Shown: piece after piece, positions 1,606 through 64,000 of the stretch
Numbering within the stretch: position 1 is the stretch's first letter
Layout: every line of letters begins with the position of its first letter
From: an uncultured Bacteroidia bacterium
GTDB taxonomy: Bacteria > Bacteroidota > Bacteroidia > J057
Length of the DNA: 64,000 nucleotides
Direction of reading: 5' to 3'
Assembly (NCBI GenBank): GCA_964521065.1
Contig: CAZFPQ010000002.1
Location: 21,909 to 85,908 of the forward strand
Notes under the pieces: model-generated
Seen by the model: only the letters and a program-made list of their open reading frames with translations
What the model was told of the DNA's origin: nothing
The model's database searches: none
Translations under genes and position numbers: made by a program

Positions 1606-3036
1606 ATGCTACCAAAATCAGAAAATATAAAAGTAGGCTTATTTGGCATTGGACTGGACACCTATTGGCCGCAGTTTGACGGCCTCCTAGAAAATCTAAA
1701 AGGTTACCAGAAGCAGATTCGCCAGCGTATAGCAGAATATGGAGTTGAGGTAATAGACGCTGGCATGGTAGACTGTCCAGTAAAGGCCCGACAAGCAGCG
1801 AATATGCTCAAGACAGCAGATGTAGAAATCGTGTTTCTGTACGTATCTACCTATGCGCTATCCTCCACTGTGCTCCCAATAGCACAAAAAGTTAAATCCC
1901 ACATAATCATACTTAATCTCCAGCCTAGAGCCCAACTGGACTATGCAGCTTTTAATCAACTAGGAGATCGAGGAGTGATGACGGGCGTTTGGCTCGAAAA
2001 CTGCCAGGCTTGCTCCGTCCCTGAGATCGCGTCGGTGTTCAATCGTTCGGGGGTCTCCTATGATTTTGTAACGGGCCATTTGCAAGACGAAGAGGCTTGG
2101 ACAGAAATCCAGGCATGGACGGAAGCAGCAAGAGTGGCTGCTTACATGCGGAGCAATCGCTTAGGGATTTTGGGACATTACTACAATGGCATGCTCGATG
2201 TCTATTCGGACCTTACGCGGCATTCAGCTGCTTTTGGAACACACATGGAATTATTAGAAATGTGTGAATTAAAACAGTATCGGGATGAAGTGACCAGCGA
2301 GCAGGTCACAGAAAAGATCAGTGAGTTTTATGAAGCCTTTGATGTAGCTGAAGATTGCAAACAATCGGAGCTAGCAAGAGCAGCTACCACGTCCATTGCC
2401 CTAGACAGATTGGTGGCAGCACATGATCTGGGTGCCATGGCTTACTATTATGAAGGAGCGCCGGGGAACGAATATGAAAACATTGTCACCTCAGTCATAG
2501 CAGGGAACACCTTACTGACAGGAAAAAACATTCCCATTGCGGGTGAGTGCGAAGTAAAAAATGCCCAGGCGATGAAGATCATGTCTGAGTTTGGGGCTGG
2601 AGGATCCTTTTCAGAATTCTACTTAATGGATTTCCAAGAAGATGTGATATTTCTAGGACATGATGGGCCTGCACATTTTGCCATTGCAGAAGGGCGAGTC
2701 AACCTGGTCCCACTCCCCGTTTACCATGGAAAGCCGGGTCAGGGGCTCTCCATCCAAATGTCCGTAAAACATGGTCCAGTAACTCTTTTGTCCGTGGTGG
2801 AAGGCAGAGATGACGTATTCTTACTAGTGGCAGAAGCCCACTCGGTAAAAGGTCCAGTTTTACATATTGGCAATACCAACAGCCGATACAAATTTTCCAT
2901 TGGCGCTAAGCAGTTCATGAATGATTGGTCCAAGCATGGTCCATCCCACCACTGTGCAATCGGTGTCGGCCATATCGCACACAAAATCGAGAAGCTCGGA
3001 CAAGTATTGAGTATTCGGGTGGAACGTGTTTGTTGA
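1606..3036 (+). CDS. L-arabinose isomerase (AraA)-family sugar isomerase, substrate unknown
   Basis: Length is ~476 aa from the ATG at 1606 (MLPKSENIKVGLFGIG...). Blocks PIAGECEVKNAQAMKIM, GGSFSEFYLMDF..VIFLGHDGP and HGPSHHCAIGVGH parallel the E. coli AraA blocks GFAGEGDWKTAALLRIM, GGTSFMEDYTYHF..LGSHMLE and AGGAHHTVFSHA, which contain the metal and catalytic Glu/His positions. Confidence 0.6.
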   Translation: MLPKSENIKVGLFGIGLDTYWPQFDGLLENLKGYQKQIRQRIAEYGVEVIDAGMVDCPVKARQAANMLKTADVEIVFLYVSTYALSSTVLPIAQKVKSHIIILNLQPRAQLDYAAFNQLGDRGVMTGVWLENCQACSVPEIASVFNRSGVSYDFVTGHLQDEEAWTEIQAWTEAARVAAYMRSNRLGILGHYYNGMLDVYSDLTRHSAAFGTHMELLEMCELKQYRDEVTSEQVTEKISEFYEAFDVAEDCKQSELARAATTSIALDRLVAAHDLGAMAYYYEGAPGNEYENIVTSVIAGNTLLTGKNIPIAGECEVKNAQAMKIMSEFGAGGSFSEFYLMDFQEDVIFLGHDGPAHFAIAEGRVNLVPLPVYHGKPGQGLSIQMSVKHGPVTLLSVVEGRDDVFLLVAEAHSVKGPVLHIGNTNSRYKFSIGAKQFMNDWSKHGPSHHCAIGVGHIAHKIEKLGQVLSIRVERVC

Positions 3037-3054
3037 TAAGAAAATCTAAAAAGC

Positions 3055-4107
3055 ATGCAGGCATTATTTGGTGTACTTTTTCACTCCATCGGAGGTGTCG
3101 CAGCAGGTAGCTTCTATATGCCCTACAACCAAGTCAAGGGTTGGGCTTGGGAAAGCTTCTGGATGCTTGGCGGCGTGGTTTCGTGGCTCATTGCCCCCAT
3201 GGTCGCTGCAGGGTTCACGGTTCCAAGCTTCCTGGCCATCATTACGGGTACCGACGGTCAGGTGATCACGTTTACCTACCTCATGGGTTTACTTTGGGGC
3301 ATTGGAGGCTTATCGTTTGGTTTAGGTGTACGCTATTTGGAGATGTCCTTAGGCAACTCTGTGGTGCTGGGTTTTTGTGCAGCATTTGGCGCCTTGATGC
3401 CAGCCATTTACTACGACTTTGTCCCCCAGCAGGGAAAAAATTCCTTAACGGACATGCTTGGTTCGCCAGGAGGTCAGTTGGTTCTGATCGGTGTGTTGTT
3501 ATGCCTGATCGGAATTGGTATTTGCGGCAAGGCAGGCATGATGAAGGAGAAAGAGCTATCTGAGGAAGAGCAAGCAAAGAGCATTGCAGAGTTCAACTTA
3601 GGCAAGGGGTTAATCGTGGCAACCGTTTCTGGAATCCTGAGTTCTTTTTTCAATTTTGGTATAGAGGCTGGTAAAGAAATGGCAGAGGCAGCGATTTTAT
3701 CAGGCTCAAACCCCCTCTTTCAAAACAATGTCACCTTTGTCGTAATTCTCTGGGGAGGCTTGACGACCAATTTTATATGGACTTCCGTTTTGAGTGTTCG
3801 GAATAGGTCCTACCAAGACTATTCCAATAAGTCCACCCCCATATTCCATAACACCCTCTTCTCATCCTTAGCTGGGATCACTTGGTTCCTTCAGTTCTTC
3901 TTCTATGGCATGGGCGAAAGCAGACTGGGAAATGGAGCCAGCTCATGGATACTGCACATGTCCACCATCATTCTTACCGCTAACCTCTGGGGAATCCAAC
4001 GAAAGGAATGGAACGGAGTCAATCCCATAACCAAGTGGACAATTGCCGCAGGCATCTTGGTCATCATCTTATCTGTGATCCTCGTAGGGATCGGAAATAC
4101 CATGTAG
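3055..4107 (+). CDS. rhaT: L-rhamnose/H+ symporter
   Basis: Collinear similarity to E. coli RhaT across the protein: [36 protein letters not shown] versus [44 protein letters not shown] versus [19 protein letters not shown] versus WYLQFFFYAWG. Length is ~350 aa with about 10 TM segments. Confidence 0.9.
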   Translation: [350 protein letters not shown]

Positions 4108-4110
4108 ACG

Positions 4111-5610
4111 ATGGCAGCAATAAATAAAACAATGAAGAAATTGAATCCTGTTTACATGTTGCTCTTGCTGATCTCCTATACGGGTTGTCAACAGGATGGA
4201 CATAAAACTAAGCAATCCGGGGCAGAGAGACCTAACGTCATTTACATTTTAACAGACCAATGGCGGACCCAGTCTTTGGGCTATGCGGGCAATCCAGATA
4301 TTCAAACGCCCTACCTCGATGCACTAGCAGAGGAGTCGGTCAATTTCATCCATGCTGTTTCCGTTACCCCGGTTTGCACCCCACACCGCGCGGCATTGCT
4401 CACAGGGAGATTTCCCACCACCACTGGAATGATCGCCAATGACATCTATCTCCCTTCGGAAGAGCTGACCATGGCAGAGCTTTACAAAGATGCGGGCTAC
4501 AGCACCGCATACTATGGAAAGTGGCATCTTGACGGCCATGGAAGGCAAAATAACGTGATCCCCGAAAGACGGCAAGGATTTGACTACTGGAAAGCACTTG
4601 AGTGTTCGCATGCCTACCATAAAATGGCCTATTACGACAATGATGATCCAGAGATGAAGTATTGGCCAGGGTATTCTCCATTTGCCATCATCGAAGATGC
4701 CAAACAGTATTTAACCCTGCGCGCAGGTGATGAAAATCCTTTCTTATTATTTATTTCCCTCGGCACCCCTCACTATCCTCATAGCAGTGCCCCAGAAAAA
4801 TACCAAGACCTATACCCAGAAGATAGCCTGTCAATATCCCTAAATGTTCCAGGAAGGCTCCATGAACGAGTCAAAAAGGAGCTAAAGGGCTACTATGCCC
4901 ATGCTACCGCTACAGACCACGCCATTGGAGGTCTTCTGGACAAAATCAAGGAGCTTGGATTCTGGGACAACTCCATCATTGTATTTTCGGCAGACCATGG
5001 AGAAATGATGGGCGCACATGGCTTTAAGCCCTTTGTTAAACAGCTGGCCTGGGATGAATCTATACGCGTGCCTTTCCTGATCAGATACCCATCCATCGGA
5101 GAAAACCAGGGGACAGTAATCAACGCCCCCTTGACCACGCCAGATATTCTTCCATCCTTACTTTCACTCTCGGGATTGGACATTCCCGAAACTGTGGATG
5201 GCGATGACCTATCCAACTTGATGAGAAATCCTGACCCAGAAGCAGATCGAGCTGCTTTGGTGATGAATGCTGCGCCTTTTGGATCAAACTTTCGAGACCC
5301 AGCCTACAGAGGTATCCGCACCAAGCAATACACCTACGTCAAGACAGTCAATGGAGAAACCTTGCTCTTCGACAACATCGATGACCCTTATCAGATGAAA
5401 AATCTGGTAAGGGACTCAGCGCATAAAGGGCTTCAAGCAAAGCTGGATCAGCTCTTTCATGCAGAGTTGGCGAAAATTAGAGATGAGCTCCACCCCCGTG
5501 AATACTACATGAATAAATGGAACCTGCAGTTTGATGACTCTAGGCGAGCCATCAATTGGTGGGACAATACAGACGGGCAGATGGTTCAGTCTCCCCGCAA
5601 GAAAAATTAA
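4111..5610 (+). CDS. S1-family (formylglycine-dependent) sulfatase, lipoprotein
   Basis: Sulfatase signature CTPHRAALLTGRF (C-x-P-x-R) is preceded by PNVIYILTDQWR. Downstream blocks are GKWHL and FSADHGEMMGAHG. A lipoprotein-type signal is present (LLLISYTGCQQ). Confidence 0.9.
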   Translation: MAAINKTMKKLNPVYMLLLLISYTGCQQDGHKTKQSGAERPNVIYILTDQWRTQSLGYAGNPDIQTPYLDALAEESVNFIHAVSVTPVCTPHRAALLTGRFPTTTGMIANDIYLPSEELTMAELYKDAGYSTAYYGKWHLDGHGRQNNVIPERRQGFDYWKALECSHAYHKMAYYDNDDPEMKYWPGYSPFAIIEDAKQYLTLRAGDENPFLLFISLGTPHYPHSSAPEKYQDLYPEDSLSISLNVPGRLHERVKKELKGYYAHATATDHAIGGLLDKIKELGFWDNSIIVFSADHGEMMGAHGFKPFVKQLAWDESIRVPFLIRYPSIGENQGTVINAPLTTPDILPSLLSLSGLDIPETVDGDDLSNLMRNPDPEADRAALVMNAAPFGSNFRDPAYRGIRTKQYTYVKTVNGETLLFDNIDDPYQMKNLVRDSAHKGLQAKLDQLFHAELAKIRDELHPREYYMNKWNLQFDDSRRAINWWDNTDGQMVQSPRKKN

Positions 5611-5661: not shown

Positions 5662-8109
5662 ATGATTATGAAAGTATGGATTTACATCCTCTTATCGCTG
5701 GGACCCGTTTCGATGACATTGGCTCAGTCTCTGCAGCATCCCATTATTTGGGTGACTGATGATGATCGGAGTGACATTTTACAAAAAATAAAAGATTACC
5801 CATGGGCAAAGCAGGTGGTGATGAGCCTTGAACAGCGTATTTCTGAAAAACTCACTGCTCACCAAAACGATCCCCAAGCCTTCTTAGCCACCATTCCCTC
5901 TCTTCAAGTCGATGATACATTAACAGAAGCACAGGCATCAAGTGGCACCGCAGCACACCATTGGTTTTTGATTTCGGCATCGGAAGCCGCTTTGCTATAC
6001 TACCTATTCAAAGACGAAAAACATGCTAGATTCGCCGCAGACATCCTTAGCTACTACATAGAAGAATTAGCTCCAAGAACGCCAGAGGTGACGACCATTG
6101 GAGGTAATGAGTTTTACGATCCACGTAGCACCTACCCTCATTTCGCTATCACATATGATTTTATATATACCTACCTCCATAAGCCCGGAACAAGAGTGAC
6201 CAAAGTTGATGGCTCGGTAGTTCCGTATGACAGCACAAAAGCACAAATGGCGATTAGAAACATCGTCGGCAATGTTTTACAAGAATATGGCGCAGCGGAT
6301 GAGCAAGGAAAAAGTGTTAGCAATCACCCTGTTTTAACCGCACCGGGAGCACTCTTCAGCATTCTATGTGTAGAAGATGACGTGGAGAGAGAACGCTTAT
6401 TTGATGTCTTTTGGAACAAAGGCACCAAACATCAAAACTCATTTACCAAAACCCTCCTACCCATGTTTGGAGAGCAGGGCATATGGCCTGAGTCACTCAG
6501 CTATAGTTTCATGCCCAATATCAGCATGATCTTAAACATTGTTGATCGAATTAAACCTGAGCTGAACATAATTGACAGCAATCTTCATATCCTAGATGGG
6601 GTATTCCTATTTGATCACCTAAGAGTCCCCGATGGGAGGTTTGTCCGCTATGGTGACTCGAAAAGAAACAAGGACGCGACCGAGACCCTCTACAGATATA
6701 CGCTCAATATAGCGCAGAGGAAGAATATGCCGCAGTATGTCCAAAAAGCTCAGATCGTGCTAAATAAGGCTTTTGCTGCTTCTAACGGTTACCAGCCACA
6801 CCTTTCTGACAACCCCTTTGGTGGTTTTTCAAGTTTTACTCATTTGCTGTGGGGGCATCCTGTACCTGATACCGTACAAGGCGAAATGGATTTTGAGAAG
6901 CCTACGGTCATCATTAAGCACGCTGGAGTAGCCCTGCAAAGAAACTATGTGGCACAAAACAACGAGGATTACGGTCTCTGCGGCATCATAGGGGGGGCTC
7001 ACTACGTTCATTCGCATGTTACCGGAATTACCATGGAGCTATATGGGGCAGGCTATGTCATGGCTCCTAATGCAGGTTTGCCCCCAAATCTATCTGGTCG
7101 CAAGACACCTGAACATAGGGAATATTTTTGGCGCCATGCAGGTAATAATACCATGATCGTGAATGGGTCCTCAGTTGGACAGTTGGAAGGCTCCTGGAAT
7201 TCAAACTTATGGATGAATACAACAGTCAATGTTGCCGCTGAACCCCGACATTTAGAGGACCCCAGTAATCCCAACTTCAGCTTTGCGACCCAGTATTTAG
7301 GTGACAAAGTAAATAATTGTGAACAGCAGCGTACGCTCAGCACCATCAGGACGAGTCCCACTACGGCTTATTATGTGGATGTATTTCGTTCCCGCTCATT
7401 AGGCCAAAATAAATTCCATGATTATATCTACCACAACATAGGCGACGCTACAACTATCTTCGATGAAACGGGCAAGCCTCTAAGCCTTAGCCCCACCACG
7501 CGCTACCAAACAGATGTAGGGGATTTTCGCAAATCACCTGGCTGGATTCATTTTAGAAATACCCAGGTCACCGATCCAACTTCTAGCGCAACGAACATTC
7601 GATTTGACGTCAAGGTAGGCAACCGCGCTATGCACCTGCTTTTACCAGCAGGGGTAAACAGGGAGTATACCCAGGCTTTGGGTCCTGCTACCCGAGAGGC
7701 AAAAAATGGATATGTAGATCAAGCAACACAGGTTCTTGCCATTCGGCAGCAGGGGGAGGCGTGGAACAACCCATACGTTGTGATCTTGGAGCCTAGCATC
7801 GGTCAGAAAAGTAGCGTTACGGAAGTCGCGCATCTATATGCCGGGGCTTCTATTGTAGGTGTAAAAGTGACCAGCCAGGTAGGAGGCCGGAAGATCCTTG
7901 ACTACGTGATCTGCCACGAAGATGAGGATGGGCATTTCGAACTGCCTGAAAAGGAACTCACCTTCGATGGGCGATTTGCCGTAGTCCGATTTATCACTGA
8001 GCATAATCAAACTGATACGGTGGTATATATCGGGCAGGGAAGATCGCTGCTTTTGGGAGAGCAGACATACAAAGGCAACGTGTCCATTCCTCCCCGTGTC
8101 GAACCTTAA
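5662..8109 (+). CDS. Heparinase II/III-like protein (alpha/alpha-toroid N-domain plus heparinase II/III C-domain); candidate polysaccharide lyase
   Basis: A signal peptide is present. The N-terminal 'HPIIWVTDDDRSDILQKIKDYPWAKQVV' resembles the start of alginate-lyase/heparinase toroid domains. The central 'GGAHYVHSHVTGITMELYGAGYVMAPNAG' fits the H.H.D.gsf.l...G block of Pfam Hepar_II_III. CAZy family not assignable by eye. Confidence 0.5.
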   Translation: MIMKVWIYILLSLGPVSMTLAQSLQHPIIWVTDDDRSDILQKIKDYPWAKQVVMSLEQRISEKLTAHQNDPQAFLATIPSLQVDDTLTEAQASSGTAAHHWFLISASEAALLYYLFKDEKHARFAADILSYYIEELAPRTPEVTTIGGNEFYDPRSTYPHFAITYDFIYTYLHKPGTRVTKVDGSVVPYDSTKAQMAIRNIVGNVLQEYGAADEQGKSVSNHPVLTAPGALFSILCVEDDVERERLFDVFWNKGTKHQNSFTKTLLPMFGEQGIWPESLSYSFMPNISMILNIVDRIKPELNIIDSNLHILDGVFLFDHLRVPDGRFVRYGDSKRNKDATETLYRYTLNIAQRKNMPQYVQKAQIVLNKAFAASNGYQPHLSDNPFGGFSSFTHLLWGHPVPDTVQGEMDFEKPTVIIKHAGVALQRNYVAQNNEDYGLCGIIGGAHYVHSHVTGITMELYGAGYVMAPNAGLPPNLSGRKTPEHREYFWRHAGNNTMIVNGSSVGQLEGSWNSNLWMNTTVNVAAEPRHLEDPSNPNFSFATQYLGDKVNNCEQQRTLSTIRTSPTTAYYVDVFRSRSLGQNKFHDYIYHNIGDATTIFDETGKPLSLSPTTRYQTDVGDFRKSPGWIHFRNTQVTDPTSSATNIRFDVKVGNRAMHLLLPAGVNREYTQALGPATREAKNGYVDQATQVLAIRQQGEAWNNPYVVILEPSIGQKSSVTEVAHLYAGASIVGVKVTSQVGGRKILDYVICHEDEDGHFELPEKELTFDGRFAVVRFITEHNQTDTVVYIGQGRSLLLGEQTYKGNVSIPPRVEP

Positions 8110-8152
8110 GCCTCCCATAATCCTTGTCCCTAACCCCTATGTCCCTACTACT

Positions 8153-11100
8153 ATGAGCAATCGAATCTTTCTTTACCTTTTTGGGATTATGATCCTTTTG
8201 GCCTGTAACCAGAGGGAATCAAGCTCTCAACTGGCCTTAGGTTTTGAACACCCCCCCTTTGAGTATCGCCCCGAAACCTGGTTCCACTTCATTGGAAATA
8301 ACATTAGCAAGGAAGGAATCACTCAGGACCTAGAAGCGATTAAGGAAGCAGGTTTGCAGGGTATTCATCTGTTTAACAAATCGGGACAGGCTTTTCCTAA
8401 GGTAGAGCAAATTGAAATCCTTTCCCCCGAATGGGAAGAAATGATCCGTCACGCAGCCAATGAGTGTGAGCGTTTAGGCTTAAAATTCACCATGCAAAAC
8501 TGCCCAGGATGGTCCATGACTGGTGGCCCTTGGGTACCTGCACAGGAGGCGCAGCGAGAACTGGTAGAAACGGTTTATCATTTCAAAGGAGGTCAGGCTC
8601 TCTCAACTCATCTAGAGATGGAGCCTAAGTATGAGGAGACAGATTATAATTATCAAGATGTTGCACTGCTCGCATTTCCAAGCCCAAACGGGGATGCCTC
8701 TCCCCTGCTTAGCCCCATTAGCACTTCCTCCAACAATTCGGCTGTACCTTGGGAGAGAATTATCAATCCAGTCAAACGGGTAGAAATGGTGAACCGGAAG
8801 CTTCCCGCAGACTGGAAGCCTTATTCGGAAATAGGCATCACTCCTGTGGGTAACGAAAGGACCTGGGTACGCATCACCTTTGACGAACCTCTATGCCTAC
8901 GTTCTCTCATTTTCCCACCCATCCGCTTCATGCTACCAGGAACAGAGTATCCGGTCATCGATGTACGGATCAAAGTCCAAGCAAAGATCGATGGCCAACT
9001 TGCTGAGGTAGCGGAAATAAAAATCCCAGATGGGAATTGGAACGATCGACAGCTGGACCTGACCCTTGCTGTTCCAGAGGCCACTTCAAATGAGTTTGTT
9101 CTAAGCTTTCTTGGTGACCATGTACTCAATCCTGGATACATATACCTAAGCTCAAAACCCCGCTTGCATAACCATGAAGCCATGGCGGCGAGGGCGTTTA
9201 GAAGATTACAAAGGTCAGTTGATGTTGAGTTTGGGCAAGAAAGCATGGTAGGCCTTTCGCAAATTGTAGATCTATCTGGCAAGATGGATCAAGAGGGGAA
9301 TCTGAATTGGGATATGCCGGAGGGTGAGTGGACATTGGTACGATTTGGGCACGTAAACATGCGGCGCACCAATAAGCCCGCCGTTCCTGAAGCTACAGGC
9401 TGGGAAGCCAGCAAACTCGATAAAATTTCCATTGAAAATCACCTAAGAAAGGGAATGATCGGCAACTTGATGCGAGAGGATGGTCCCATAGCTGGAGGTA
9501 AGTTGGATGGCCTGCTGATTGATAGTTGGGAAAGCTTTATCCCCACCTGGAGCATGCACTCAGAAGACATGTTCCGCGAATTTGAAGCCAGACGTGGATA
9601 TCCGCTGAAGTCATTTTTACCCGCAACTATGGGCTACATCGTGGAGAGTCCTGAGGTCACGACCAAATTCCTTCGAGACCTCAGGCATACCATGGATGAA
9701 CTATACGTTGAGAACTTTTTCAGTCATTTCGCTACCGTTGCCCATGAAATGGGAGCAGAAGTTTACACCGAAGGTGCAGGGGGTGAAGTACTGCCCATCG
9801 ATCCCATGCGCTATTATGGAGTTGCAGACATTCCCATGACTGAGTTTTGGTACCCAGGACCTCCCTCTGCCCAAAATGAGTACGCAAAACCCATCTTTCA
9901 TGCTGCTTCGGCCATGCATGTATACAACAAACCCAAACTGGCGGCAGAGGCATGTACCCAAATCGGAGTAAAATGGAACGAACATCCCTATTCGGTCAAA
10001 GGGCTAATTGACTACAATTTAACCAAAGGAGTAAACCACCTCGTTTTCCACACCTTCACCCATACACCCCAAAATGATGTTTATCCAGGTTCTAGCTTTG
10101 GTGGGAATATCGGGTTTCCACTAGTCAGGCAGCAGACATGGTGGCAGCATATGTCGGCATGGACGGATTACCTCACTCGAAATCAGTTCATGCTGCAGCA
10201 AGGGGAATACGTAGCAGATGTACTTAGGTACTATGGAGACCATTATGAGCGTCCACCCTTTGACTTGGATTTTTTTCCGAAAGGGTATCGTTTCGATTAT
10301 CTCAATGCGGAAATCCTGCACAACAAACTACGTGTACATAATGGCCTGATCCATGTCGAAGAGGCAGGCAGTTATAGGGTAATCGATTTGGGAGACTCAA
10401 GAGAATTGATGCTTTCAACGATCAAACGCTTAAAAGAACTGGTCATAGCAGGAGCAGTGGTGCTAGGGGACAAACCCGTAGACTCGCCCAGTTTGATGGA
10501 TGATGATGATGACCTCAAGGCATTGAAAAAAATTTCCGATGAGCTTTGGGGCGATGGCCACAGTGGGGTAAAAGCTGTAGGCAGAGGACGTGTTTATTGG
10601 GGGAAGAATATTGAAGAAGTCCTTGACTTAGAAGGGGTCAGTCCAGATTTTCATTCCCCTGAGGAACTTCAAATCAATTGGATACATCGAGAAACTGAGA
10701 ACGAGGATATCTACTTTATTTCCTCTAGAAACAAACATACGTTAAGGGCTTCTGTAGGATTTAGAATTCAGGATGCTGCGCCTGAAATCTGGGATGCTTT
10801 TACGGGGAAGAGGCAGAAAGCGCTGGTTTGGGATAGAGATGAAACCCATACCCAAGTAGCGATTACGCTGGATCCAAAAGGGAGTACAATCGTGGTATTT
10901 CCCAAAGGAAGTAAAGGTAGCACCTGTAGCGAGATTCAATGGAATGGACAAACCATCTTACAAGCGAAAGCTGATTGGACCCCTGATACAAGTCATGACT
11001 CATTGGTCCATATCGAATACTACGGCGAGGATTTGGTGGCTTCGAAGAGCGGGACCTATACTTTCCATTACGGGTATGGAAACAAGGACATTGAAGTTGA

Positions 11101-14888: not shown

Positions 14889-14949
14889 GGCCCTTCGAAA
14901 TGAGTCCCAATCCCCCAAAACCAAAAAGTTTATCTCCAAGAAAGCGCTC

Positions 14950-52027: not shown

Positions 52028-52069
52028 GCGTCCAAAGAAACTTTAACCCTTATTCGACCCCCGAAATCT

Positions 52070-56217: not shown

Positions 56218-56303
56218 GCAAGCAAAAAAATGAAATAATTATCACCTGGCAATAGGTATTGCCCCTGCCTCGCCTGCTATACAATTATAAGCACCATAAC
56301 AGA

Positions 56304-57311
56304 ATGAATGACGAGTACATCTGGAGCCTGATTGCCAAATTTTGCGATGGCAGTATCAAGGAAAAAGAAGAGGGAGTACTGCTCGCCTGGATAGGTGCGG
56401 ATTCAGAAAATCGTAAGATCTTTAAAGAAGTGGTCCAGTTGATGGAAACTAAAAAGTCTACCCCTCAGGTAGATACCAAGCAAGCTTGGCAAAAGGTCAA
56501 AGGCAAACTGATAGAGGAGGAATTGATAAGAAATTCAGCAGAAAAAAACTTCCGTTTTTCTAACCCCTATGGCTTAGCCGCAGTATTTCTACTCCTAGCC
56601 ATGTTAGCAGGGGCTTCCTTTTTTATCCCTTGGCAAGGGGAAGGTAGTCAAAAGGTCATAAGCATCAGTCATCCCGGTGATGTAGATTCATTTTTGGTGC
56701 GACTACCTGATGGCAGCAGGGTCTGGCTAAATAAGACCGCCCAGCTAACTTATGAAAAATCATTTGGTCAAGATGAGCGGATGGTAGAGCTGCTTGGTGA
56801 AGGTTTTTTCGAAGTGGTAAAAGATTCTAAGAGGCCATTTGTAGTGGTTTCGCAAGGAGTTCGCACCATGGCCTTGGGTACGTCCTTTAATGTCCAAGCC
56901 TTTGCAGATCAGGACGAGGTGATTATATCCCTCGCCACCGGCAAGGTGCGTGTCAGTACACCCCTAAAATCCCAACCCGTTGTACTTGCCCCTGGGGAAG
57001 AAATAAAGGTCTCCCCGAGAGATGGCAGCCACCAAAAAAGAGTCTTTGAACCAGAAGAGCGATTAGCCTGGAAAGAAGGAATGATTTATTTCAAATCGGC
57101 TGATGTACAGCAGGTAGTGAAAACCTTGAGCCGGTGGTACGGCATCAGTTTTGAAATCAAGGACCGTGAGAAAATGAAAAGCCAACTCTCTGCTACCTAT
57201 AAGCAGGAGAGCCTGGAGGACATACTTGACATGATCAGCTTCTCTGCTGATTATGAATTTACAATCAATGGGAGTACGGTGACGGTGCACCCTAGCATTT
57301 CGGGACTATAA
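56304..57311 (+). CDS. FecR-family anti-sigma factor / transmembrane sensor
   Basis: The start is moved to the ATG at 56304 (MNDEYIWSLIAKF...). There is a single TM segment (GLAAVFLLLAMLAGASFFI). The FecR domain is VRLPDGSRVWLNKTAQLTYEK...VELLGEGFFEVVKDSKRPFVV...TSFNV. Confidence 0.85.
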   Translation: MNDEYIWSLIAKFCDGSIKEKEEGVLLAWIGADSENRKIFKEVVQLMETKKSTPQVDTKQAWQKVKGKLIEEELIRNSAEKNFRFSNPYGLAAVFLLLAMLAGASFFIPWQGEGSQKVISISHPGDVDSFLVRLPDGSRVWLNKTAQLTYEKSFGQDERMVELLGEGFFEVVKDSKRPFVVVSQGVRTMALGTSFNVQAFADQDEVIISLATGKVRVSTPLKSQPVVLAPGEEIKVSPRDGSHQKRVFEPEERLAWKEGMIYFKSADVQQVVKTLSRWYGISFEIKDREKMKSQLSATYKQESLEDILDMISFSADYEFTINGSTVTVHPSISGL

Positions 57312-57509
57312 ACCTTATGACTATGAACTACTACCAAGACTCTTACCACGACTCTAGCTGAGTGGCACTCTGGGTCAGTAATCAAGGATGACTGACCGCA
57401 TAAGTTAAATCATTTAGGGATTACAACTCACTTGGAATGTTCGGCCTGGGCAGTCCTAGGGTCCCTATATCCTTTACGAAGGCTTCCTTCTATTATTAAT
57501 AAAAACAAT

Positions 57510-60500
57510 ATGGACACTACAACAACTACTAGGCAACTAATTGCTTTGTCCAAAATTGCCCTATTTACCTTTTGCATCGGCTGCTTTAGCCTATATCCGG
57601 CAATGGCAGAAACGGACTATCCGGGTCAGCCTGATATAAAAGAGGTAAAGCTATCCGTCAACTGGAATCAGATGACCCTAGGCAAAGCATTCTCAGAAAT
57701 CGAACGAAAAACAGACTTTTTCTTTTCCTACGACGAAACACTACTCAGAGACCAGAGCGTAATTACCTATCGGGCAGAAAAAGAACCATTAACCCGGGTA
57801 TTACAGCACATCTCGAATCAGACAGATCTCACCTTCAAGCAAGTAAAGGACTACATCCTGGTTCGACGAAAGAAAAAAGCCAGTACGGGTACTCTAAAGC
57901 AGCTCGAGCCGGCGCCCGTTCGCGCTCCTCTGGCCCACCCCCTGCGGCAGCCCGAGCTTAGCTCACTTTATCCGTTAGAAAAAGAAATCTCTGGCACCGT
58001 GACCAACGAAGCGGGAGAACCGCTTACGGGAGCGACCGTCATCGCCAAAGGTACCAACATTGGGATGATCACAGATGAGGAAGGAAAATTTAGCATAACC
58101 GTGCCCGATAAGGTGACTACCTTAACCATATCTTTTATTGGCTTCGTGCCTCTAGACGTCTCTATTGCCGGCCAAAGTACCATCAATGTTTCGCTGGAAA
58201 TTGATGCCCTCAGCTTGAATGAGGTGGTGGTGGTAGGCTATGGAACCACCAAAAAATCTGACTTAACCGGTTCCGTTGCCTCTGTAAGTGCTGAAGATAT
58301 CGTAGCAGTTCCTAATTCAAGGGTTGACCAAGCCCTACAAGGCCGAGCAGCGGGAGTACATGTTACCCAAACCAGTGGAGCACCAGGAGCCGGAACCGTT
58401 ATCCGGGTTCGAGGAGGAAACTCTATTACTGGCAGCAATGAGCCTCTTTGGGTCATCGATGGAATCATTGTAGGGACGAATTTCAACTTGAACAACATCA
58501 ACTCAAATGACATTCAGTCGATAGAAGTCTTGAAGGATGCTTCCTCTATTGCCATTTATGGCTCTAGGGGAGCCAACGGGGTGGTCTTGGTTACCACCAA
58601 AAGTGGTGGTGGAGCAGTTCGCGGAAAACCTCAAGTAAGCTTTAACCTATACTCTGGTGTACAACTGGTACCTGAGCTGCCCGAAATGCTCACCCAAGAA
58701 GAGCAAATTGCCTTTACCAATGAGAGCGCTAGGTTCAGATCTGCGGCCGAACCATTTCCTGACGATCCATCTACCTACCCCAACAACGATTGGTATGACT
58801 TACTGCTTGGCCCTTCCCCTATGTACAACGCCGATGTCTCTATCGCCGGTTCTTCAGAAAATGGGAAAGTCAACTATTACAACTCTTTCAACTATTTCAA
58901 CCAAGATGGGCTGGTTATCAGCTCAGGCATTGAGAAATATATTTACCGATCCAACTTAGACCTGAAGCTCAGCGATAAAGTCAGCGCAGGTTTCCGACTC
59001 AATTACTCAAGGATTGCCAGGGATAATGGCGTGGTGAGCTTTGGCAACGCTTTTGCCACCCTGCCGACTCAGCCTATCCGCAATGAGGATGGAAGTTTTA
59101 ATGGGTTCAATGAGGTAGTAGGATCCCCTTTTTCCAATCCCATTGCCAATGCAGAGTTGAACACCAACGAGACTTTCACCAACAACCTGCTCGCAACGGC
59201 TTATGTAGAGTATCGTCCCTCTCCAAAGTGGACCATTCGCTCTACCTTCAACCCAGAATTCAACAACACCAAGCAAAATGTATTCAATTCCAGTGAGCGT
59301 CCAGACTTCCTTGAAGTAGGAGAGCTAGGGAATGCCCGGGTTCGCACAGTAGCCAGCACAGGATGGAACAATGAAAATACCATCCAGTACCAATCCGATA
59401 TTGGTACAGATCATCGCATTACGGTACTTGGTGGTGCATCTTTCCAGCAGGTACAGACCGAAATCACTGAAGCTGAAGCATTTGGTATCACCAGTGATGC
59501 CGCAGGTTTCAACAACCTAGCCTTTTCAGACCCCACCAGAGCAGTGGTTTCCAGTGATTTTACCGGCTTTCAAATCGCCTCCTTCTTTGGCAGGCTGAAC
59601 TATGTCTTCAGGGATAAATACCTCTTTACCGTAGTGGGAAGAACGGATGGCAGTTCCGTATTTGCCCCTGGGAACAAGTATGAATTCTACCCCTCAGTAG
59701 CTGCGGCTTGGAAAATATCTGAAGAGGCCTTTATGCAAAGTCAAAACTTTGTAGAAGACCTTAAACTGAGAGCGAGCTACGGACGTTCAGGCAATCAGGC
59801 CATCGGCCCCTACAGGACCCTAGGGCTGCTGACCGAGGCCAACACGACCCTCAATGGACTGCAAAATCCAGGACTGACCTTGGGACGGCCTGCCAACCCC
59901 AACCTGCGTTGGGAAACAACCACTTCCTTCGATGTCGCCCTAGAAGCGGCATTCCTTCGAGGCCGAATCTTTGCGGAATTGAATTACTATTATAAGAGAA
60001 CCGAAGACCTACTCCTGGATGTGACCATTCCCCGCCAAACTGGATTTACGAGTCAGTTACAAAATATCGGCTCCCTACAAAACCAAGGTTGGGAACTGTT
60101 GCTGACCTCTCGAAACTTCGTACAGGATAAATTCACCTGGTCTTCTACCGTTACTTTGGCGGCCAACAATAACGAAATCCTTGATCTAGGTGGCGCTGAG
60201 TTTATCGATGTAACCGTAGATGAGATTTTAGGCTCAGGAAATACACGCCTCATCGTCGGCCAACCCGTACCTGTATTTACTGGAGTTCAATACCTAGGTA
60301 CCTGGAAAAGTCAAGAGGAGATTGATGCTTCTGGCCTCAGTTCTCAAGTCGTAGGTGGACCTCGCTACGAGGACCTAAATGGAGACGGCATTATTTCTAC
60401 AGAAGATAACATCGTGATTGGAGATCCTACTCCCGACCTAATCTTTGGTGTTGACAATACCTTCTCGATCCAGAACTTTGATTTCTCTTTTTACTTCCAG

Positions 60501-60929
60501 GGAACGCTTGGCAATGAGGTATACAACCTCAGAATGCGAAACCACTATTTCAACCGAGGTGAAACCACCAAGTTTGCGGACTTAGCTAATCGCTGGACCC
60601 CAGAAAACCCTGCCTCAGATATTCCTAGAGCAGGATCAGATGCGGTCACCACCAATCTGAGCAACACGGAATACGTGGAAGATGGGTCTCATCTGCGCCT
60701 AAAAACCGTCCGACTAGCTTACAACATTTTCGGAACCGATCGGATCCAGAATGCCACCATCTATCTGACTGGCACTAACCTACTGTTGTTATCCAACTTC
60801 CGGCTCATTGACCCAGAGACCAGTCGTTTTGGCAGAAATGGCCTAGGAAACATTGCCCAAGGCTATGCCAACGGGGAATATCCAAATCCTCGCATTATAA
60901 CCCTTGGATTTAACATCACCTTTAAATAG
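57510..60929 (+). CDS. susC: SusC/RagA-family TonB-dependent transporter with N-terminal STN signalling domain
   Basis: The start is moved to the ATG at 57510 (MDTTTTTRQLIALSKIALF...). The STN-like block is VNWNQMTLGKAFSEIERKTDFFFSYDE. The CarboxypepD_reg block is ISGTVTNEAGEPLTGATVIAKGTNIGMITDEEGKFSI. The SusC hallmark LNEVVVVGYGTTKKSDLTGSVASV is present, and the C-terminus is ...GFNITFK. Confidence 0.9.
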   Translation: MDTTTTTRQLIALSKIALFTFCIGCFSLYPAMAETDYPGQPDIKEVKLSVNWNQMTLGKAFSEIERKTDFFFSYDETLLRDQSVITYRAEKEPLTRVLQHISNQTDLTFKQVKDYILVRRKKKASTGTLKQLEPAPVRAPLAHPLRQPELSSLYPLEKEISGTVTNEAGEPLTGATVIAKGTNIGMITDEEGKFSITVPDKVTTLTISFIGFVPLDVSIAGQSTINVSLEIDALSLNEVVVVGYGTTKKSDLTGSVASVSAEDIVAVPNSRVDQALQGRAAGVHVTQTSGAPGAGTVIRVRGGNSITGSNEPLWVIDGIIVGTNFNLNNINSNDIQSIEVLKDASSIAIYGSRGANGVVLVTTKSGGGAVRGKPQVSFNLYSGVQLVPELPEMLTQEEQIAFTNESARFRSAAEPFPDDPSTYPNNDWYDLLLGPSPMYNADVSIAGSSENGKVNYYNSFNYFNQDGLVISSGIEKYIYRSNLDLKLSDKVSAGFRLNYSRIARDNGVVSFGNAFATLPTQPIRNEDGSFNGFNEVVGSPFSNPIANAELNTNETFTNNLLATAYVEYRPSPKWTIRSTFNPEFNNTKQNVFNSSERPDFLEVGELGNARVRTVASTGWNNENTIQYQSDIGTDHRITVLGGASFQQVQTEITEAEAFGITSDAAGFNNLAFSDPTRAVVSSDFTGFQIASFFGRLNYVFRDKYLFTVVGRTDGSSVFAPGNKYEFYPSVAAAWKISEEAFMQSQNFVEDLKLRASYGRSGNQAIGPYRTLGLLTEANTTLNGLQNPGLTLGRPANPNLRWETTTSFDVALEAAFLRGRIFAELNYYYKRTEDLLLDVTIPRQTGFTSQLQNIGSLQNQGWELLLTSRNFVQDKFTWSSTVTLAANNNEILDLGGAEFIDVTVDEILGSGNTRLIVGQPVPVFTGVQYLGTWKSQEEIDASGLSSQVVGGPRYEDLNGDGIISTEDNIVIGDPTPDLIFGVDNTFSIQNFDFSFYFQGTLGNEVYNLRMRNHYFNRGETTKFADLANRWTPENPASDIPRAGSDAVTTNLSNTEYVEDGSHLRLKTVRLAYNIFGTDRIQNATIYLTGTNLLLLSNFRLIDPETSRFGRNGLGNIAQGYANGEYPNPRIITLGFNITFK

Positions 60930-60937: not shown

Positions 60938-62509
60938 ATGAAAGCTATACATATAAATATCGGTGCCTTAATCTTGATCCTTTGCCTAGGTTGTCAGAAC
61001 TTTTTGGAAGAGGACCCAAGAGCGATCATTGCACCAGAAAACTTCTTTGCCTCAGAAAATGATGCCAGGCAAGCCATCAACGGGATCTACGCCATCTACA
61101 AGAACAATTCCCTATATGGGCAGGTAGGGCTAGACCATTTTTATGACAATGGAGCAGACATCATCGAACCCAATCGTTCTGCAAACTTTGTAGAGCCCAT
61201 TGGAAACTACTCAATGAATGAAGCCTTAGCTGATGTATCGGTTCAAAAGATGAGCGTTTCCGACACTTGGAAGGACCTCTACCGAATCGTGTTAAACGCC
61301 AACATTATTTTGGACCGAGTAGAAGGAAACGAGGCAATCCTTCCAGATATCCAAACCGACATCATCGCTGAAGTATTATTCCTGCGCTCGCTTGCTTATT
61401 GGCACATCACCAATCTTTGGGGAGATGCTCCATATTACACCGAGAACCTTAGCATTGATGAAATCAAAGTATTGGGGAGAACGGATGAGGAGACCATCAT
61501 AGCTGGTATCCTAACCGATCTGCAGTTTGCCCAAGACAACATGCCGAGAAGGGACGAAATACCAGCGTCTAATCGAGGTCGTGCATCTAAGTGGGCGGCC
61601 GCCATCGTCATGGCGAAAATCTACATGAAGCAACAAAACTGGCAAGCAGGCCTAGACAAATGTCTAGAAATCATCAACGAATCTTCGCATTTGCTCATGC
61701 CCGCCTATGCCGATGTATTTGATCCGGCTCAGGAATACAATGACGAGATCATCTGGTCTTTGGACTTTGCGAAAGACATCAGGGGTCAATTTGAAGAAGG
61801 AGTCCCAAGAATCGCCGGCAACGGCAATTGGCGCCCCAGCATGTTCAACCCTCGCTTGAGAGACGAGCCTCTCAATACCGATGAGAGAGGAGCCCTTAGG
61901 GATGCTCTGTCCGCGAGAGGAGAAGCATTTAATGGTACAGGTCTGCAAGTCGCGTCCAAAGACTTTGCAGAGAAGTTCCCCATGAATGATCTGAGAAGAC
62001 CTTTGAATGTCTTGGATAACTACCTAGGATTTGATTTGGTATTCCCATACATGCCCAAATTCATGAATTTGAGTCTAGAGAGCTCCCCCAGATTCAACCA
62101 CTCTGACAATCGAATGATATTTCGACTAGGAGATGTCTATCTAATGGCTGCGGAGTGCGAAAATGAATTGAACGGACCGGCCAATGCCTACCCATATATT
62201 CACGCCATCCGGGAACGAGCTTATGAAACCCAAGCTGAATGGGAACTGACCGGATTGTCTCAACAAGAGTTCCGAGAAGCAATTTATGATGAACGTAAGT
62301 GGGAGTTGGCTGGAGAGGCGCATAGGCGCTATGACCTTATTCGATGGGGAATTCTATTGGAGGTTGTCCAGAACTTAGAATATCGGTTTTGGACCCCCGC
62401 CGAAAATATCAGACCCTACCATGTGTTGCTTCCTATCCCTTTACAAGAACTGCAGCTAAACCCTGCCTTGCTTGAATCGGATCCAACGAATAACGGATAC
62501 AGACAGTGA
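60938..62509 (+). CDS. susD: SusD/RagB-family outer-membrane glycan-binding lipoprotein
   Basis: The lipobox is LILILCLGCQNF. The typical SusD start is EEDPRAIIAPENFFASENDARQAINGIYA, and the C-terminal block is RKWELAGEAHRRYDLIRWG. The gene starts 8 nt after susC. Confidence 0.9.
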   Translation: MKAIHINIGALILILCLGCQNFLEEDPRAIIAPENFFASENDARQAINGIYAIYKNNSLYGQVGLDHFYDNGADIIEPNRSANFVEPIGNYSMNEALADVSVQKMSVSDTWKDLYRIVLNANIILDRVEGNEAILPDIQTDIIAEVLFLRSLAYWHITNLWGDAPYYTENLSIDEIKVLGRTDEETIIAGILTDLQFAQDNMPRRDEIPASNRGRASKWAAAIVMAKIYMKQQNWQAGLDKCLEIINESSHLLMPAYADVFDPAQEYNDEIIWSLDFAKDIRGQFEEGVPRIAGNGNWRPSMFNPRLRDEPLNTDERGALRDALSARGEAFNGTGLQVASKDFAEKFPMNDLRRPLNVLDNYLGFDLVFPYMPKFMNLSLESSPRFNHSDNRMIFRLGDVYLMAAECENELNGPANAYPYIHAIRERAYETQAEWELTGLSQQEFREAIYDERKWELAGEAHRRYDLIRWGILLEVVQNLEYRFWTPAENIRPYHVLLPIPLQELQLNPALLESDPTNNGYRQ

Positions 62510-62563
62510 GAGTAGTAGTAGTTTTGCCTGTTGACTTGCTTTAGCAAGAGGCAAATTCAGTGA

Positions 62564-62590
62564 GAGAAGCTACTGCCACAGTAGCTTCTC
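62564..62590 (+). terminator. Perfect 12-bp stem / 3-nt loop hairpin downstream of susD, preceded by a second composite hairpin at 62524-62554
   Basis: GAGAAGCTACTG-cca-CAGTAGCTTCTC was read directly from the sequence. The upstream element is TTGCCT..CTTGCT-tt-AGCAAG-AGGCAA. There is no strong U-run after it (aatttcat), so it may be a processing or stability element rather than a classical terminator. Confidence 0.45.
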
Positions 62591-62623
62591 AATTTCATCT
62601 CCACATTTTTCGACCTAAGTGAA

Positions 62624-64000
62624 ATGAAAAACCTTTTCTGGCTTTTAGTCCTCTTTGTTCATCACTCGATTCAGGCCCAAAACCCAATCGTAGCCAACCA
62701 AGGCTTGAACGATCCGCATATCCACATTTTCAATGACACGGCATATCTCTACGCCACGCATGATAAATCCATGGATAACCAATCCTTTGTCATGGAAGAC
62801 TGGTGGGTATGGTCCTCTATTGACTTGGTCAATTGGAAAAAAGAGAGCGTGCTAAAGCCTGAGGAAACCTACATCGGCAAGGCCTCTTCCGATTGTTGGG
62901 CCACCCATGCCGCATACCGTGACGGCAAGTATTACTGGTACTTTTCCGAGGGAAATCGCCAAACAGGGGTGATGGTTGGGCCTTCCCCCACAGGCCCTTG
63001 GCAGGATCCATTAGGGAAGCCCCTCTTGCCATCAGAACTGACTCTTACGGATGAGTACGACGCGGCAATCTTCGAAGAGAATGGGGAACACTACATCATA
63101 TTTGGGGTATGGGAATACTACATCGCTAAACTGAATGAAGACATGGTCAGTTTAGCTGAATCCCCTAGGCCAATTTCCATTCGTCATAAAGAAGGGCCGT
63201 ACGGAAAGGGTAAAACAGATGACAAGCCCTTTCTCCATAAATACCAAGATAAATACTACCTATCCTGGGGCTGTTTCTATGCCATGTCCGAGGACTTGTA
63301 TGGACCGTACACCTATGCCGGCACGGTAATGAACCACGAAAGCTTTGCCCAAGGCTACGCAGCACTTACCTGGCCAAATGGCTACTTACAAGGTCGGCAC
63401 GGTTCCTTCTTTGAATGGCACAATCAATGGTATTTCACCTACTGTGATATAAGCCAAACCGGCAATCCAAAGTTCAGAGATTCGTTCATCAGCTATGTCC
63501 ATTATAAGAAAAATGGCAAAATAGCGATGGTTCGCGTTGATGGGGTAGGAGTTGGACAATATGATGCTCAGCAGCCTCAGATCGAAGCCGAAGAGTATTT
63601 CGATGCCCAAGGTTGGAGCAAATCAGAGAAGGTAGAAGGAGGATTCATGGTGACGACTACCCAGGATAGCAGCTACCTTAATTTTCCCCATGTGCATGGT
63701 TTAGATGAGGTATCCCAGATCCGCTTTAAGCTGGCATCGGCTGATACCGGAAGTTTTACCATCCAGGTAAGGGCTGACAGCTTGAAAGGGAAGCTCTTAG
63801 CTGAGACGGATTGGACTCATAAAGGAAGTTCTGAGGTTTTCCAGACCATGGAACTCAGTCTCCCCAAGATGGAAGAAACAGAAAATCTCTACATTCTCAT
63901 TTATCACAAAACTGGACAATCTCTTCAGTTAGACCATTTTTCCTTTGACGGGGCCATGGACTACAGAGATGCCTCCCTTTCCGTGGAGCAACGAGTAGAA
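62624..64000 (+). CDS. GH43-family glycoside hydrolase plus CBM6/35-like module, truncated by the window end (not in the supplied ORF track because no stop is reached)
   Basis: I translated this by hand from the ATG at 62624; it gives 459 codons with no stop up to 64000. It begins MKNLFWLLVLFVHHSIQAQNPIVANQGLNDPHIHIFNDTAYLYATHD... Further blocks are DCWATHAAYRDGKYYWYFS, DDKPFLHKYQDKYYLSW and GRHGSFFEWHNQWYF (five-bladed GH43 pattern). These are followed by QIEAEEYFDAQGW...IRFKLAS..GSFTIQVRADS..GKLL (CBM6-like). Confidence 0.75.
   Translation, partial: MKNLFWLLVLFVHHSIQAQNPIVANQGLNDPHIHIFNDTAYLYATHDKSMDNQSFVMEDWWVWSSIDLVNWKKESVLKPEETYIGKASSDCWATHAAYRDGKYYWYFSEGNRQTGVMVGPSPTGPWQDPLGKPLLPSELTLTDEYDAAIFEENGEHYIIFGVWEYYIAKLNEDMVSLAESPRPISIRHKEGPYGKGKTDDKPFLHKYQDKYYLSWGCFYAMSEDLYGPYTYAGTVMNHESFAQGYAALTWPNGYLQGRHGSFFEWHNQWYFTYCDISQTGNPKFRDSFISYVHYKKNGKIAMVRVDGVGVGQYDAQQPQIEAEEYFDAQGWSKSEKVEGGFMVTTTQDSSYLNFPHVHGLDEVSQIRFKLASADTGSFTIQVRADSLKGKLLAETDWTHKGSSEVFQTMELSLPKMEETENLYILIYHKTGQSLQLDHFSFDGAMDYRDASLSVEQRVE

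Follow-up and report, generated by a model that had tools for sequence, protein, structure and literature searches.

A probable ulvan utilization locus with predicted PL25 and PL40 lyases in an uncultured Cytophagales-like bacterium

The subject of this study is a stretch of 64,000 nucleotides from an uncultured Bacteroidia bacterium (assembly GCA_964521065.1, contig CAZFPQ010000002.1, positions 21,909 to 85,908; the window), which we regard with considerable confidence as an ulvan utilization locus of four adjacent units (A to D, Table 1) that works like the cascade of Formosa agariphila. Ulvan, a sulfated cell-wall polysaccharide of green seaweeds that is rich in rhamnose, forms a large but little-used carbon pool in green-tide Ulva, and enzymes for its processing come from ulvan polysaccharide utilization loci (PULs). 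The locus is a known type of system, an ulvan PUL, here found in a Cytophagales-like host, and its presence in such a host would not surprise a specialist. Family memberships, conserved catalytic residues and synteny are taken directly from the sequence, while the substrate, the order of the enzymes and their location in the cell are deduced from these. A preliminary description of the same DNA proposed a sulfated, rhamnose-rich algal glycan as the target and offered ulvan as one of two options. That general assignment stands, but several of its details change with the identification of the lyases.

Predicted ulvan lyases of families PL25 and PL40

The BNR_4 protein of unit A is a PL25 ulvan lyase, its activity being predicted from homology. 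Its residues 78-506 align in a phmmer search with chain residues 20-454 of PLSV_3936 (PDB 5UAM), which is nearly full length. The PL25 active-site residues His123, His143, Tyr188, Arg204, Tyr246 and His264 have described catalytic or charge-neutralising roles (PMC11395424), and all six are kept, as H153, H173, Y218, R234, Y280 and H298, in a comparison that used a 24-residue numbering offset. The maximal open reading frame (ORF) overlaps the upstream sulfatase gene by 50 nt; the real start is probably M57 or M60 (position 21645 or 21654), which would expose a lipoprotein signal.

The second lyase, noted earlier as a heparinase-like protein, is a predicted PL40 ulvan lyase. Residues 106-798 align with chain residues 130-839 of Uly1040 (PDB 9VTK), a structurally characterised PL40 ulvan lyase, and the alignment covers both domains. 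Five of the six Uly1040 catalytic residues (Asn245, Tyr305, Asp358, His485 and His487) are present as N221, Y281, D332, H450 and H452.

With PL25 and PL40 in place, the headline of the preliminary description, that no canonical ulvan lyase set is present, falls. Its two BNR_4 propellers are both confirmed by Pfam, one being the PL25 lyase and the other a PL42-like protein (see below). Of its three lyase-fold candidates, the beta-helix protein secreted by the type IX secretion system (T9SS) is upheld by an AlphaFold model, the heparinase-like protein resolves into PL40, and the alginate-lyase domain, labelled PL5-like there, is confirmed by Pfam and is PL38-like. For annotation, the lesson is that Pfam BNR_4 or weak heparinase II/III matches in marine Bacteroidota may represent PL25, PL42 or PL40 enzymes.

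The genomic surroundings of PL25 were compared by scanning species-representative genomes with the PL25 protein, which yielded 80 loci onto which the window proteins were then mapped (L numbers below denote compared loci). The best PL25 match in that scan, with 67% identity, comes from Draconibacterium sediminis. Hosts of PL25 loci include Polaribacter, Algibacter, Maribacter, Tamlana, Hyunsoonleella, Alteromonas, Paraglaciecola and others, and the recurrent neighbourhood consists of GH106, PL40, GH2, GH78, the same sulfatases (up to 81% identity), DUF1961, PL38-like domains and RhaEW with RhaI. Homologues of the DUF1961 protein, with 43-59% identity, lie near PL25 in L006, L007, L033, L036 and L063 (Bacteroidales, Lysobacterales, Polaribacter, Hyunsoonleella and Alteromonas). 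Furthermore, a 2026 paper describes PL24, PL25, PL40 and GH106 within one locus of Pseudoalteromonas marina PUA1001 (PMC13050008).

Sulfatases and rhamnosidases

The last gene of unit C encodes the counterpart of F. agariphila P36, a fusion of an S1_25 sulfatase with GH78, as judged by sequence comparison. Its best match in the PDB is 6HR5, which represents the S1_25 part of F. agariphila P36; no other sulfatase there scores better than E 4e-49. The GH78 domains follow at residues 480-1144, so that the domain order is that of P36. The F. agariphila enzyme is bifunctional and first desulfates ulvan oligosaccharides and then removes their terminal rhamnose (PMC8511951).

Sulfatase modules are found in four proteins, and all four carry the C-x-P/A-x-R formylglycine motif (CTPHR, CAPSR, CGASR and CAASR). 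GH78 is likewise present in four proteins (Bac_rhamnosid6H, 83-194 bits) and GH106 in two (Glyco_hydro_106, 577-591 bits), in each case above the Pfam gathering score. The preliminary description had named the assignment of these rhamnosidases to other families as the outcome that would speak against it; the hidden Markov models (HMMs) agree with its prediction. Its wider inventory of four GH78, two GH106, four Cys-type sulfatases, GH2, GH43-CBM6, two importers and the L-rhamnose genes is equally borne out by Pfam and NCBIfam. It had, in addition, considered the rhamnosidase load unusually heavy. This does not hold: GH106, GH78, PL40, GH2 and the same sulfatases surround PL25 in numerous loci of Polaribacter, Algibacter, Maribacter, Tamlana and Alteromonas, and the gene set is met again beside PL25 in dozens of marine genomes. 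Such a load is therefore normal for ulvan loci of the PL25 type. Homologues of the downstream GH106 enzyme, about 50% identical, are encoded directly upstream of PL25 in many Flavobacteriaceae.

One of the four GH78 proteins, of 1186 aa, carries a PL38-like domain of the alginate-lyase fold at its N-terminus, which matches PDB 3NFV (E 4e-64) and BoPL38 (8BDQ/9FHT, E 3e-46), while its GH78 part is divergent. Near PL25, many genomes encode the PL38-like domain as a gene of its own. In Alteromonas aestuariivivens (L063) the two parts are separate genes (7688-9961 and 14454-15596), which indicates that the fusion is specific to the lineage of the window; the GH78 orthologue of Reichenbachiella ulvae has no lyase domain.

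L-rhamnose catabolism

All four steps of the phosphorylated L-rhamnose pathway (RhaT, RhaI, kinase and RhaEW) are encoded in the window, the kinase being assigned by family and operon position only. No RhaM mutarotase was found in the window.

The gene that closes the rhaEW-rhaI-kinase-lldD series encodes a 463-aa membrane protein. As a candidate for a missing enzyme it was rejected, since it is a membrane permease that belongs to the rhamnose operon. Its place in relatives is always behind rhaEW-rhaI-kinase (L081 10001-11380; L082 10001-11395), with rhaM after it in one case, and its identity across Bacteroidota is 80-86%. This position at the end of the operon makes it a candidate for an unrecognised L-rhamnose permease, and its probable role is that of a rhamnose-related transporter in addition to RhaT.

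At the head of the 14-gene operon of unit A, rhaT is paired with a gene for a protein of the L-fucose/L-arabinose isomerase family, although the locus already has RhaI. The homologues of this protein also measure 476 aa, with 84% identity in R. ulvae (L092 10001-12502, isomerase and RhaT) and 71% in a Maribacter PL25 locus (L079 19929-21341).

Proposed route of ulvan degradation

In the proposed cascade, the PL25 and PL40 lyases would first cut ulvan at the bonds between rhamnose 3-sulfate (Rha3S) and glucuronic or iduronic acid, Rha3S-(1->4)-GlcA/IdoA, possibly together with the secreted PL42-like and beta-helix proteins. The resulting oligosaccharides would be imported through the SusC/SusD pair and the other TonB-dependent receptor. 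Periplasmic breakdown is predicted to fall to the sulfatases (with the S1_25 Rha3S sulfatase among them), GH78, GH106, GH2, GH43 and the PL38-like domain, which would remove sulfate, rhamnose, glucuronate and xylose. L-rhamnose would then enter the cytoplasm via RhaT or the NCS1-like permease, where RhaI, the kinase, RhaEW and LldD would turn it into dihydroxyacetone phosphate and pyruvate.

Opposing evidence and alternative readings

Several observations weigh against this assignment. The PL40 protein carries His222 at the position of Uly1040 Trp246, which together with a second residue is said to neutralise the +1 carboxylate. Among the four sulfatases, a subfamily is given for the S1_25 module only. 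The window holds no KduI, KduD, KdgK or KdgA, no xylose catabolic genes and no formylglycine-generating enzyme. It also holds no GH88/GH105, the unsaturated uronyl hydrolase: there is no Pfam Glyco_hydro_88 match, tblastn with a GH88-type protein returned nothing, and no unassigned ORF is left. Finally, the trio of genes that forms unit B occurs in another contig with no ulvan lyase (PL25 or PL40) in the 18 kb seen.

Unit B consists of a TonB-dependent receptor, a right-handed beta-helix protein and the PL42-like protein. The last is related to the PL42 enzyme FoRham1 (PDB 7ESK), and the PDB search returned no PL24 entry for it at E 0.01 or better. The FoRham1 residues His85, His105, Tyr150 and Arg166 are kept as H105, H126, Y171 and R187, and Ser170, Tyr202, Asn275, Arg331 and Glu381 are kept as well. 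Tyr26 and Gln276, which hydrogen-bond O2 and O3 of rhamnose in the -1 subsite, are not: position 26 is Ser or Gly and position 276 is Gly, and both vary in marine homologues too. From this pattern we infer that the chemistry is retained and the rhamnose pocket altered, possibly admitting Rha3S; the natural substrate is probably sulfated. The Rha-alpha-1,4-GlcA linkage, for which the catalytic set is kept, is found in ulvan and favours ulvan as the substrate of the locus. FoRham1 is an L-Rha-alpha-1,4-GlcA lyase; characterised PL42 and GH145 enzymes are active on gum arabic, and on ulvan FoRham1 shows no more than trace activity (PMC8377490).

The beta-helix protein has no sequence match in the PDB and no Pfam domain beyond its sorting tail. 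Its AlphaFold model (57 homologues, mean pLDDT 88) is a right-handed beta-helix, and Foldseek places it closest to PL6 alginate lyases (E 9e-5, TM about 0.3, 13-17% identity). Membership of PL6 was rejected, the likeness being at the level of the fold only. A search for homologues found 361. Between positions 184 and 300 the protein has a cluster of Asp, Asn, His, Lys and Arg residues that are conserved, which fits a putative active or binding groove. The protein represents an uncharacterised family and is a candidate lyase or binding protein.

A composite cluster is possible, if unlikely: units A, C and D would serve ulvan, and unit B would be an independent neighbouring module for another glycan capped with Rha-alpha-1,4-GlcA, for example arabinogalactan-protein or algal or plant glycans that resemble gum arabic. 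The strongest point in favour of a separable module is that the trio is kept as a block with about 80% identity in the unrelated ENA contig L087 (6959-14211), where it lies behind a hybrid two-component regulator and next to GH3, and since it stands there under another regulator and apart from ulvan lyases, unit B could serve a different Rha-GlcA glycan. The gum arabic activity of the characterised enzymes points the same way, as does the 1.29-kb non-coding gap between units A and B (34841-36129, between GH2 on the minus strand and the TonB-dependent receptor). No ORF in this gap exceeds 67 aa, and Rfam gives no match; it was also searched for a degraded hybrid two-component regulator like the one that precedes the receptor in L087, of which no remnant was found. 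The gap is probably a divergent promoter region. However, a PL42-like gene is found at most 10 kb from PL25 in L007, L021 and L039 and adjoins the GH43 orthologue in L128 and L100, the syntenic locus of R. ulvae has two BNR_4/CBM96/T9SS genes at its side, and the replacement of the FoRham1 contacts Y26 and Q276 by small residues fits a 3-O-sulfated rhamnose.

It is doubtful that the cassette at 36130-43385 is an undescribed cell-surface depolymerisation system for sulfated Rha-GlcA glycans, with the PL42-like protein as an ulvan lyase of a new type and the beta-helix protein as founder of a new lyase family. If this were true, the -1 pocket of the PL42-like enzyme would have been opened, by the change of Tyr26 and Gln276 to small residues, to take Rha3S.

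The absence of GH88/GH105, which belong to a complete ulvan PUL as defined from F. agariphila, also bears on whether the route is canonical. The preliminary description had noted the lack of GH88/GH105 and of KduI/KduD, and this is confirmed for the window only. It is highly improbable that the organism uses a truly non-canonical ulvan route that dispenses with unsaturated uronyl hydrolases, for example exo-lyase or dehydratase chemistry followed by the cytoplasmic AraA-like isomerase and the GFO/IDH/MocA oxidoreductase, even though the missing genes and the presence of these two additional proteins speak for it. The window is only 64 kb of an 86-kb contig, and its end cuts the GH43-CBM6 gene. 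Synteny was sampled in those marine metagenome loci where a GH43-CBM6 orthologue (50-60% identity) is followed by more than 4.5 kb of sequence (n=19). In 13 of these 19, a gene of the Glyco_hydro_88 family lies at most 5 kb downstream of the orthologue, usually after GH3. The same loci also hold the S1_25|GH78 fusion (62-65% identity), the HEAT-repeat sulfatase, the GFO oxidoreductase, GH106 and PL40-like genes. A GH88-type gene is, moreover, located within 10 kb of PL25 in 19 of the 80 PL25 loci. Because related loci place GH3 and a GH88/105-type gene after GH43-CBM6, the gap is probably a window-edge effect, and a GH88/105-type gene is predicted just past the end of the window.

It is very unlikely that another sulfated rhamnose-rich polymer is the main substrate (Monostroma-type rhamnan sulfate, for which we found no described PUL or degradation locus in the literature for comparison, or a bacterial or microalgal rhamnose-rich exopolysaccharide): the six rhamnosidase modules, four sulfatases and missing GH88/GH105 would suit it, but rhamnan sulfate offers no uronic acid to the four uronate-lyase-type domains (PL25, PL40, PL42-like and PL38-like), the P36-type enzyme is ulvan-specific in F. 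agariphila, and an equal rhamnosidase load stands beside PL25 in many genomes. The suggestion of the preliminary description that the target is rhamnan-sulfate-like, or that ulvan is attacked by a non-canonical enzyme set, is thus unsupported in view of PL25, PL40 and the P36-type S1_25|GH78 enzyme. We retain the assignment as an ulvan utilization locus.

Gene organization and regulation

The ORF listing contains 31 substantial genes, 28 of them on the plus strand (Table 1). The whole window has no Rfam family match.

Table 1. Units and genes of the window with the evidence for their assignment (coordinates in nucleotides of the window)
Feature	Coordinates	Strand	Evidence or remark
Unit A	639-34840		AraC regulator, 14-gene operon, convergent GH2
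AraC-family regulator	639-1547	-	NCBIfam AraC/RhaR/RhaS-type matches; divergent from 14-gene operon
L-fucose/L-arabinose-isomerase-family protein, 476 aa from ATG at 1606	1606-3036	+	Weak Pfam Arabinose_Iso_C; weak NCBIfam L-arabinose and sulfoquinovose isomerase
RhaT L-rhamnose/H+ symporter	3055-4107	+	Pfam RhaT, E 1.5e-64
S1 sulfatase, lipoprotein-type signal	4111-5610	+	Pfam Sulfatase, E 5e-56; CTPHR; 74% identity in R. ulvae
PL40 ulvan lyase, predicted ("heparinase-like")	5662-8109	+	PDB 9VTK Uly1040, E 1.1e-79; weak Pfam Hepar_II_III_C
GH106 alpha-L-rhamnosidase	8096-11584	+	Pfam Glyco_hydro_106, 591 bits
GH78 alpha-L-rhamnosidase	11589-14888	+	Five GH78 Pfam domains; 66% identity in Maribacter PL25 locus
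PL38-like (alginate-lyase-fold) domain fused to GH78	14950-18510	+	Pfam Alginate_lyase, E 4e-66; C-terminal Bac_rhamnosid6H/C
GFO/IDH/MocA NAD(P) oxidoreductase, no signal peptide	18576-19607	+	Pfam; only weak NCBIfam matches
S1 sulfatase with C-terminal HEAT repeats	19670-21526	+	Pfam Sulfatase and HEAT_2; CAPSR
PL25 ulvan lyase (BNR_4 protein), activity predicted	21477-23024	+	PDB 5UAM, E 4.9e-123
DUF1961 protein with signal peptide	23014-23847	+	Pfam DUF1961, E 7e-8; directly after PL25
S1 sulfatase	23892-25415	+	Pfam Sulfatase, E 1e-36; CGASR; 64-81% identity in flavobacterial PL25 loci
GH78 alpha-L-rhamnosidase	25468-28728	+	Pfam
GH106 alpha-L-rhamnosidase	28810-32346	+	Pfam, 577 bits
GH2 glycosidase (beta-glucuronidase/galactosidase type)	32369-34840	-	Pfam GH2 domains; 74% identity in R. 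ulvae
Unit B	36130-43385		TonB-dependent receptor and two T9SS-secreted proteins
SusC-like TonB-dependent receptor without SusD partner	36130-39093	+	Pfam CarbopepD_reg_2 and Plug; 79% identity in L087, same trio
T9SS-secreted right-handed beta-helix protein	39126-40943	+	Pfam Por_Secre_tail only; AlphaFold model
PL42-like seven-bladed propeller with CBM96 and T9SS tail (BNR_4)	41148-43385	+	PDB 7ESK FoRham1, E 1.4e-41; GH145, E 1e-27; Pfam CBM96, Por_Secre_tail
Unit C	43651-55588		AraC-regulated L-rhamnose catabolic operon, last gene S1_25|GH78 enzyme
AraC-family regulator	43651-44655	-	Pfam AraC_binding and HTH_18; divergent from rhamnose operon; 291-aa AraC at same position in L081
RhaEW, bifunctional rhamnulose-1-P aldolase/lactaldehyde dehydrogenase	44679-46778	+	NCBIfam TIGR02632, 929 bits (cut-off 568); NF006191, 1333 bits
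L-rhamnose isomerase, RhaI type	46866-48149	+	NCBIfam TIGR02629, E 1e-156, 522 bits, below cut-off 647
FGGY sugar kinase, probable rhamnulokinase	48149-49453	+	Pfam FGGY_N/C; weak rhamnulokinase match; conserved operon position
FMN-dependent L-lactate dehydrogenase-like (LldD-like)	49474-50679	+	Pfam FMN_dh, E 4e-118
NCS1/purine-cytosine-permease-like membrane transporter, 463 aa	50636-52027	+	No Pfam/NCBIfam match; homologues named NCS1 or purine-cytosine permease
S1_25 sulfatase fused to GH78 (P36 type)	52070-55588	+	PDB 6HR5, E 1.1e-223, residues 19-462; Pfam Sulfatase and GH78
Unit D	55627 to beyond 64000		ECF sigma/anti-sigma pair, SusC/SusD, GH43-CBM6
Extracytoplasmic function (ECF) sigma factor	55627-56217	+	Pfam Sigma70_r2/r4
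FecR-type anti-sigma factor	56259-57311	+	Pfam FecR and FecR_C
SusC-like TonB-dependent receptor, N-terminal extension	57432-60929	+	Pfam; Plug domain from residue 275
SusD-like protein	60938-62509	+	Pfam SusD_RagB and SusD-like_3
GH43 with CBM6, cut by window end	62624-64000	+	Pfam

The 14 genes between 1606 and 32346 are co-directional, as the preliminary description had stated. Measured between maximal ORFs, the intervals that separate them are -50 to +81 nt (3-161 nt in that description). A terminator scan found no plus-strand terminator-like hairpin in any intergenic gap among these 14 genes, in a setting where promoter and terminator scan counts were at or below shuffle expectation and sigma-70 promoter matches mean little in Bacteroidota. 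A single long transcript is plausible and would fit both the layout and the hairpin-free gaps. The divergent AraC regulator of unit A is 59% identical to the AraC protein at the same position in R. ulvae. For the second AraC regulator, the true start most likely lies about 33 codons in (44557-44655 being excess), so that an intergenic region of the normal divergent kind precedes rhaEW.

Two TonB-dependent receptors are encoded in the window, and only the second has a SusD partner. Its adjoining SusC and SusD genes, accompanied by carbohydrate-active enzymes and preceded by the ECF sigma factor and FecR, have the composition by which Bacteroidota PULs are defined.

Some further observations concern single genes. 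PL25 loci of Alteromonas and Aliiglaciecola contain homologues of the HEAT-repeat sulfatase (37-40% identity), and so do marine metagenome loci, where they follow GH43-GH3-GH88. The GFO/IDH/MocA oxidoreductase is cytoplasmic and set amid secreted enzymes; homologues with 40-41% identity lie immediately upstream of the GH43-CBM6 orthologue in the metagenome loci L096, L099 and L100 (around 8950-9940). The window opens, just before the AraC regulator, with an ORF (23-523) that covers the C-terminal part of a T9SS-secreted protein of 286 aa, in which Pfam recognises a Beta-tre_PLH30 (beta-trefoil) domain; its counterpart is at L089 1614-2474. Proteins 100% identical to those of the window are encoded on short ENA/Logan metagenome contigs (L084-L086 and L088-L091), for example WANG22-1_SAMN08714533 and SRR6869045, and their presence in several metagenome assemblies indicates that the organism has been sampled repeatedly.

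Comparison with known ulvan systems

The window resembles the ulvan PUL H of F. agariphila KMM 3901 (Reisky et al. 2019; Baumgen et al. 2021, PMC8511951) in its PL40, P36-type S1_25|GH78, further GH78, GH2, GH43, several S1 sulfatases and SusC/SusD, and in the logic that leads from lyase via sulfatase and rhamnosidase to monosaccharides. However, the initial lyase is PL25 in the window and PL28 in Formosa, and the window has no PL37 dehydratase, GH39, GH3 or GH105/GH88. It adds two GH106, the PL38-like-GH78 fusion, the PL42-like T9SS enzyme and the T9SS beta-helix protein, and it encloses a complete operon for rhamnose catabolism, all in a Cytophagales-like host of about 47% GC instead of a flavobacterium.

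The PL25 loci of Alteromonas, Pseudoalteromonas and Flavobacteriaceae (PUA1001; Polaribacter, Algibacter and Maribacter, L022-L079) likewise combine PL25, PL40, GH106, GH78, GH2 and sulfatases, and several of their proteins are 50-80% identical to those of the window. The window differs from them in its gene order, its T9SS-secreted parts, the absence of PL24 and its regulation by AraC and ECF sigma factors.

The PL42-like protein shares with FoRham1 and GH145 (PMC8377490) the seven-bladed propeller in which His85, His105, Tyr150, Arg166 and Tyr202 are kept, but, unlike FoRham1, it is bacterial, T9SS-secreted and CBM96-bearing, and the Tyr26 and Gln276 that bind rhamnose O2 and O3 are not kept.

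The closest cultured relative found is R. ulvae, which was isolated from Ulva. The 21 kb seen of the locus in strain ABR2-5 (GCA_025833875.1, L092) differ from the window in that no PL40 stands between the sulfatase and GH106 and in that the GH78 protein has no PL38-like domain. The series AraC | isomerase-RhaT-sulfatase-GH106-GH78 is nevertheless syntenic, with GH2 and BNR_4/CBM96/T9SS genes alongside, and the identities range from 59 to 84% (84% for the isomerase; 70-74% for the sulfatase, GH106 and GH2). The locus adds a Cytophagales-type version of a known ulvan system and leaves the general picture unchanged. Three of its parts, namely the secreted PL42-like/CBM96 enzyme, the T9SS beta-helix family and the PL38-like-GH78 fusion, all of which recur near ulvan lyases, are perhaps worth cloning.

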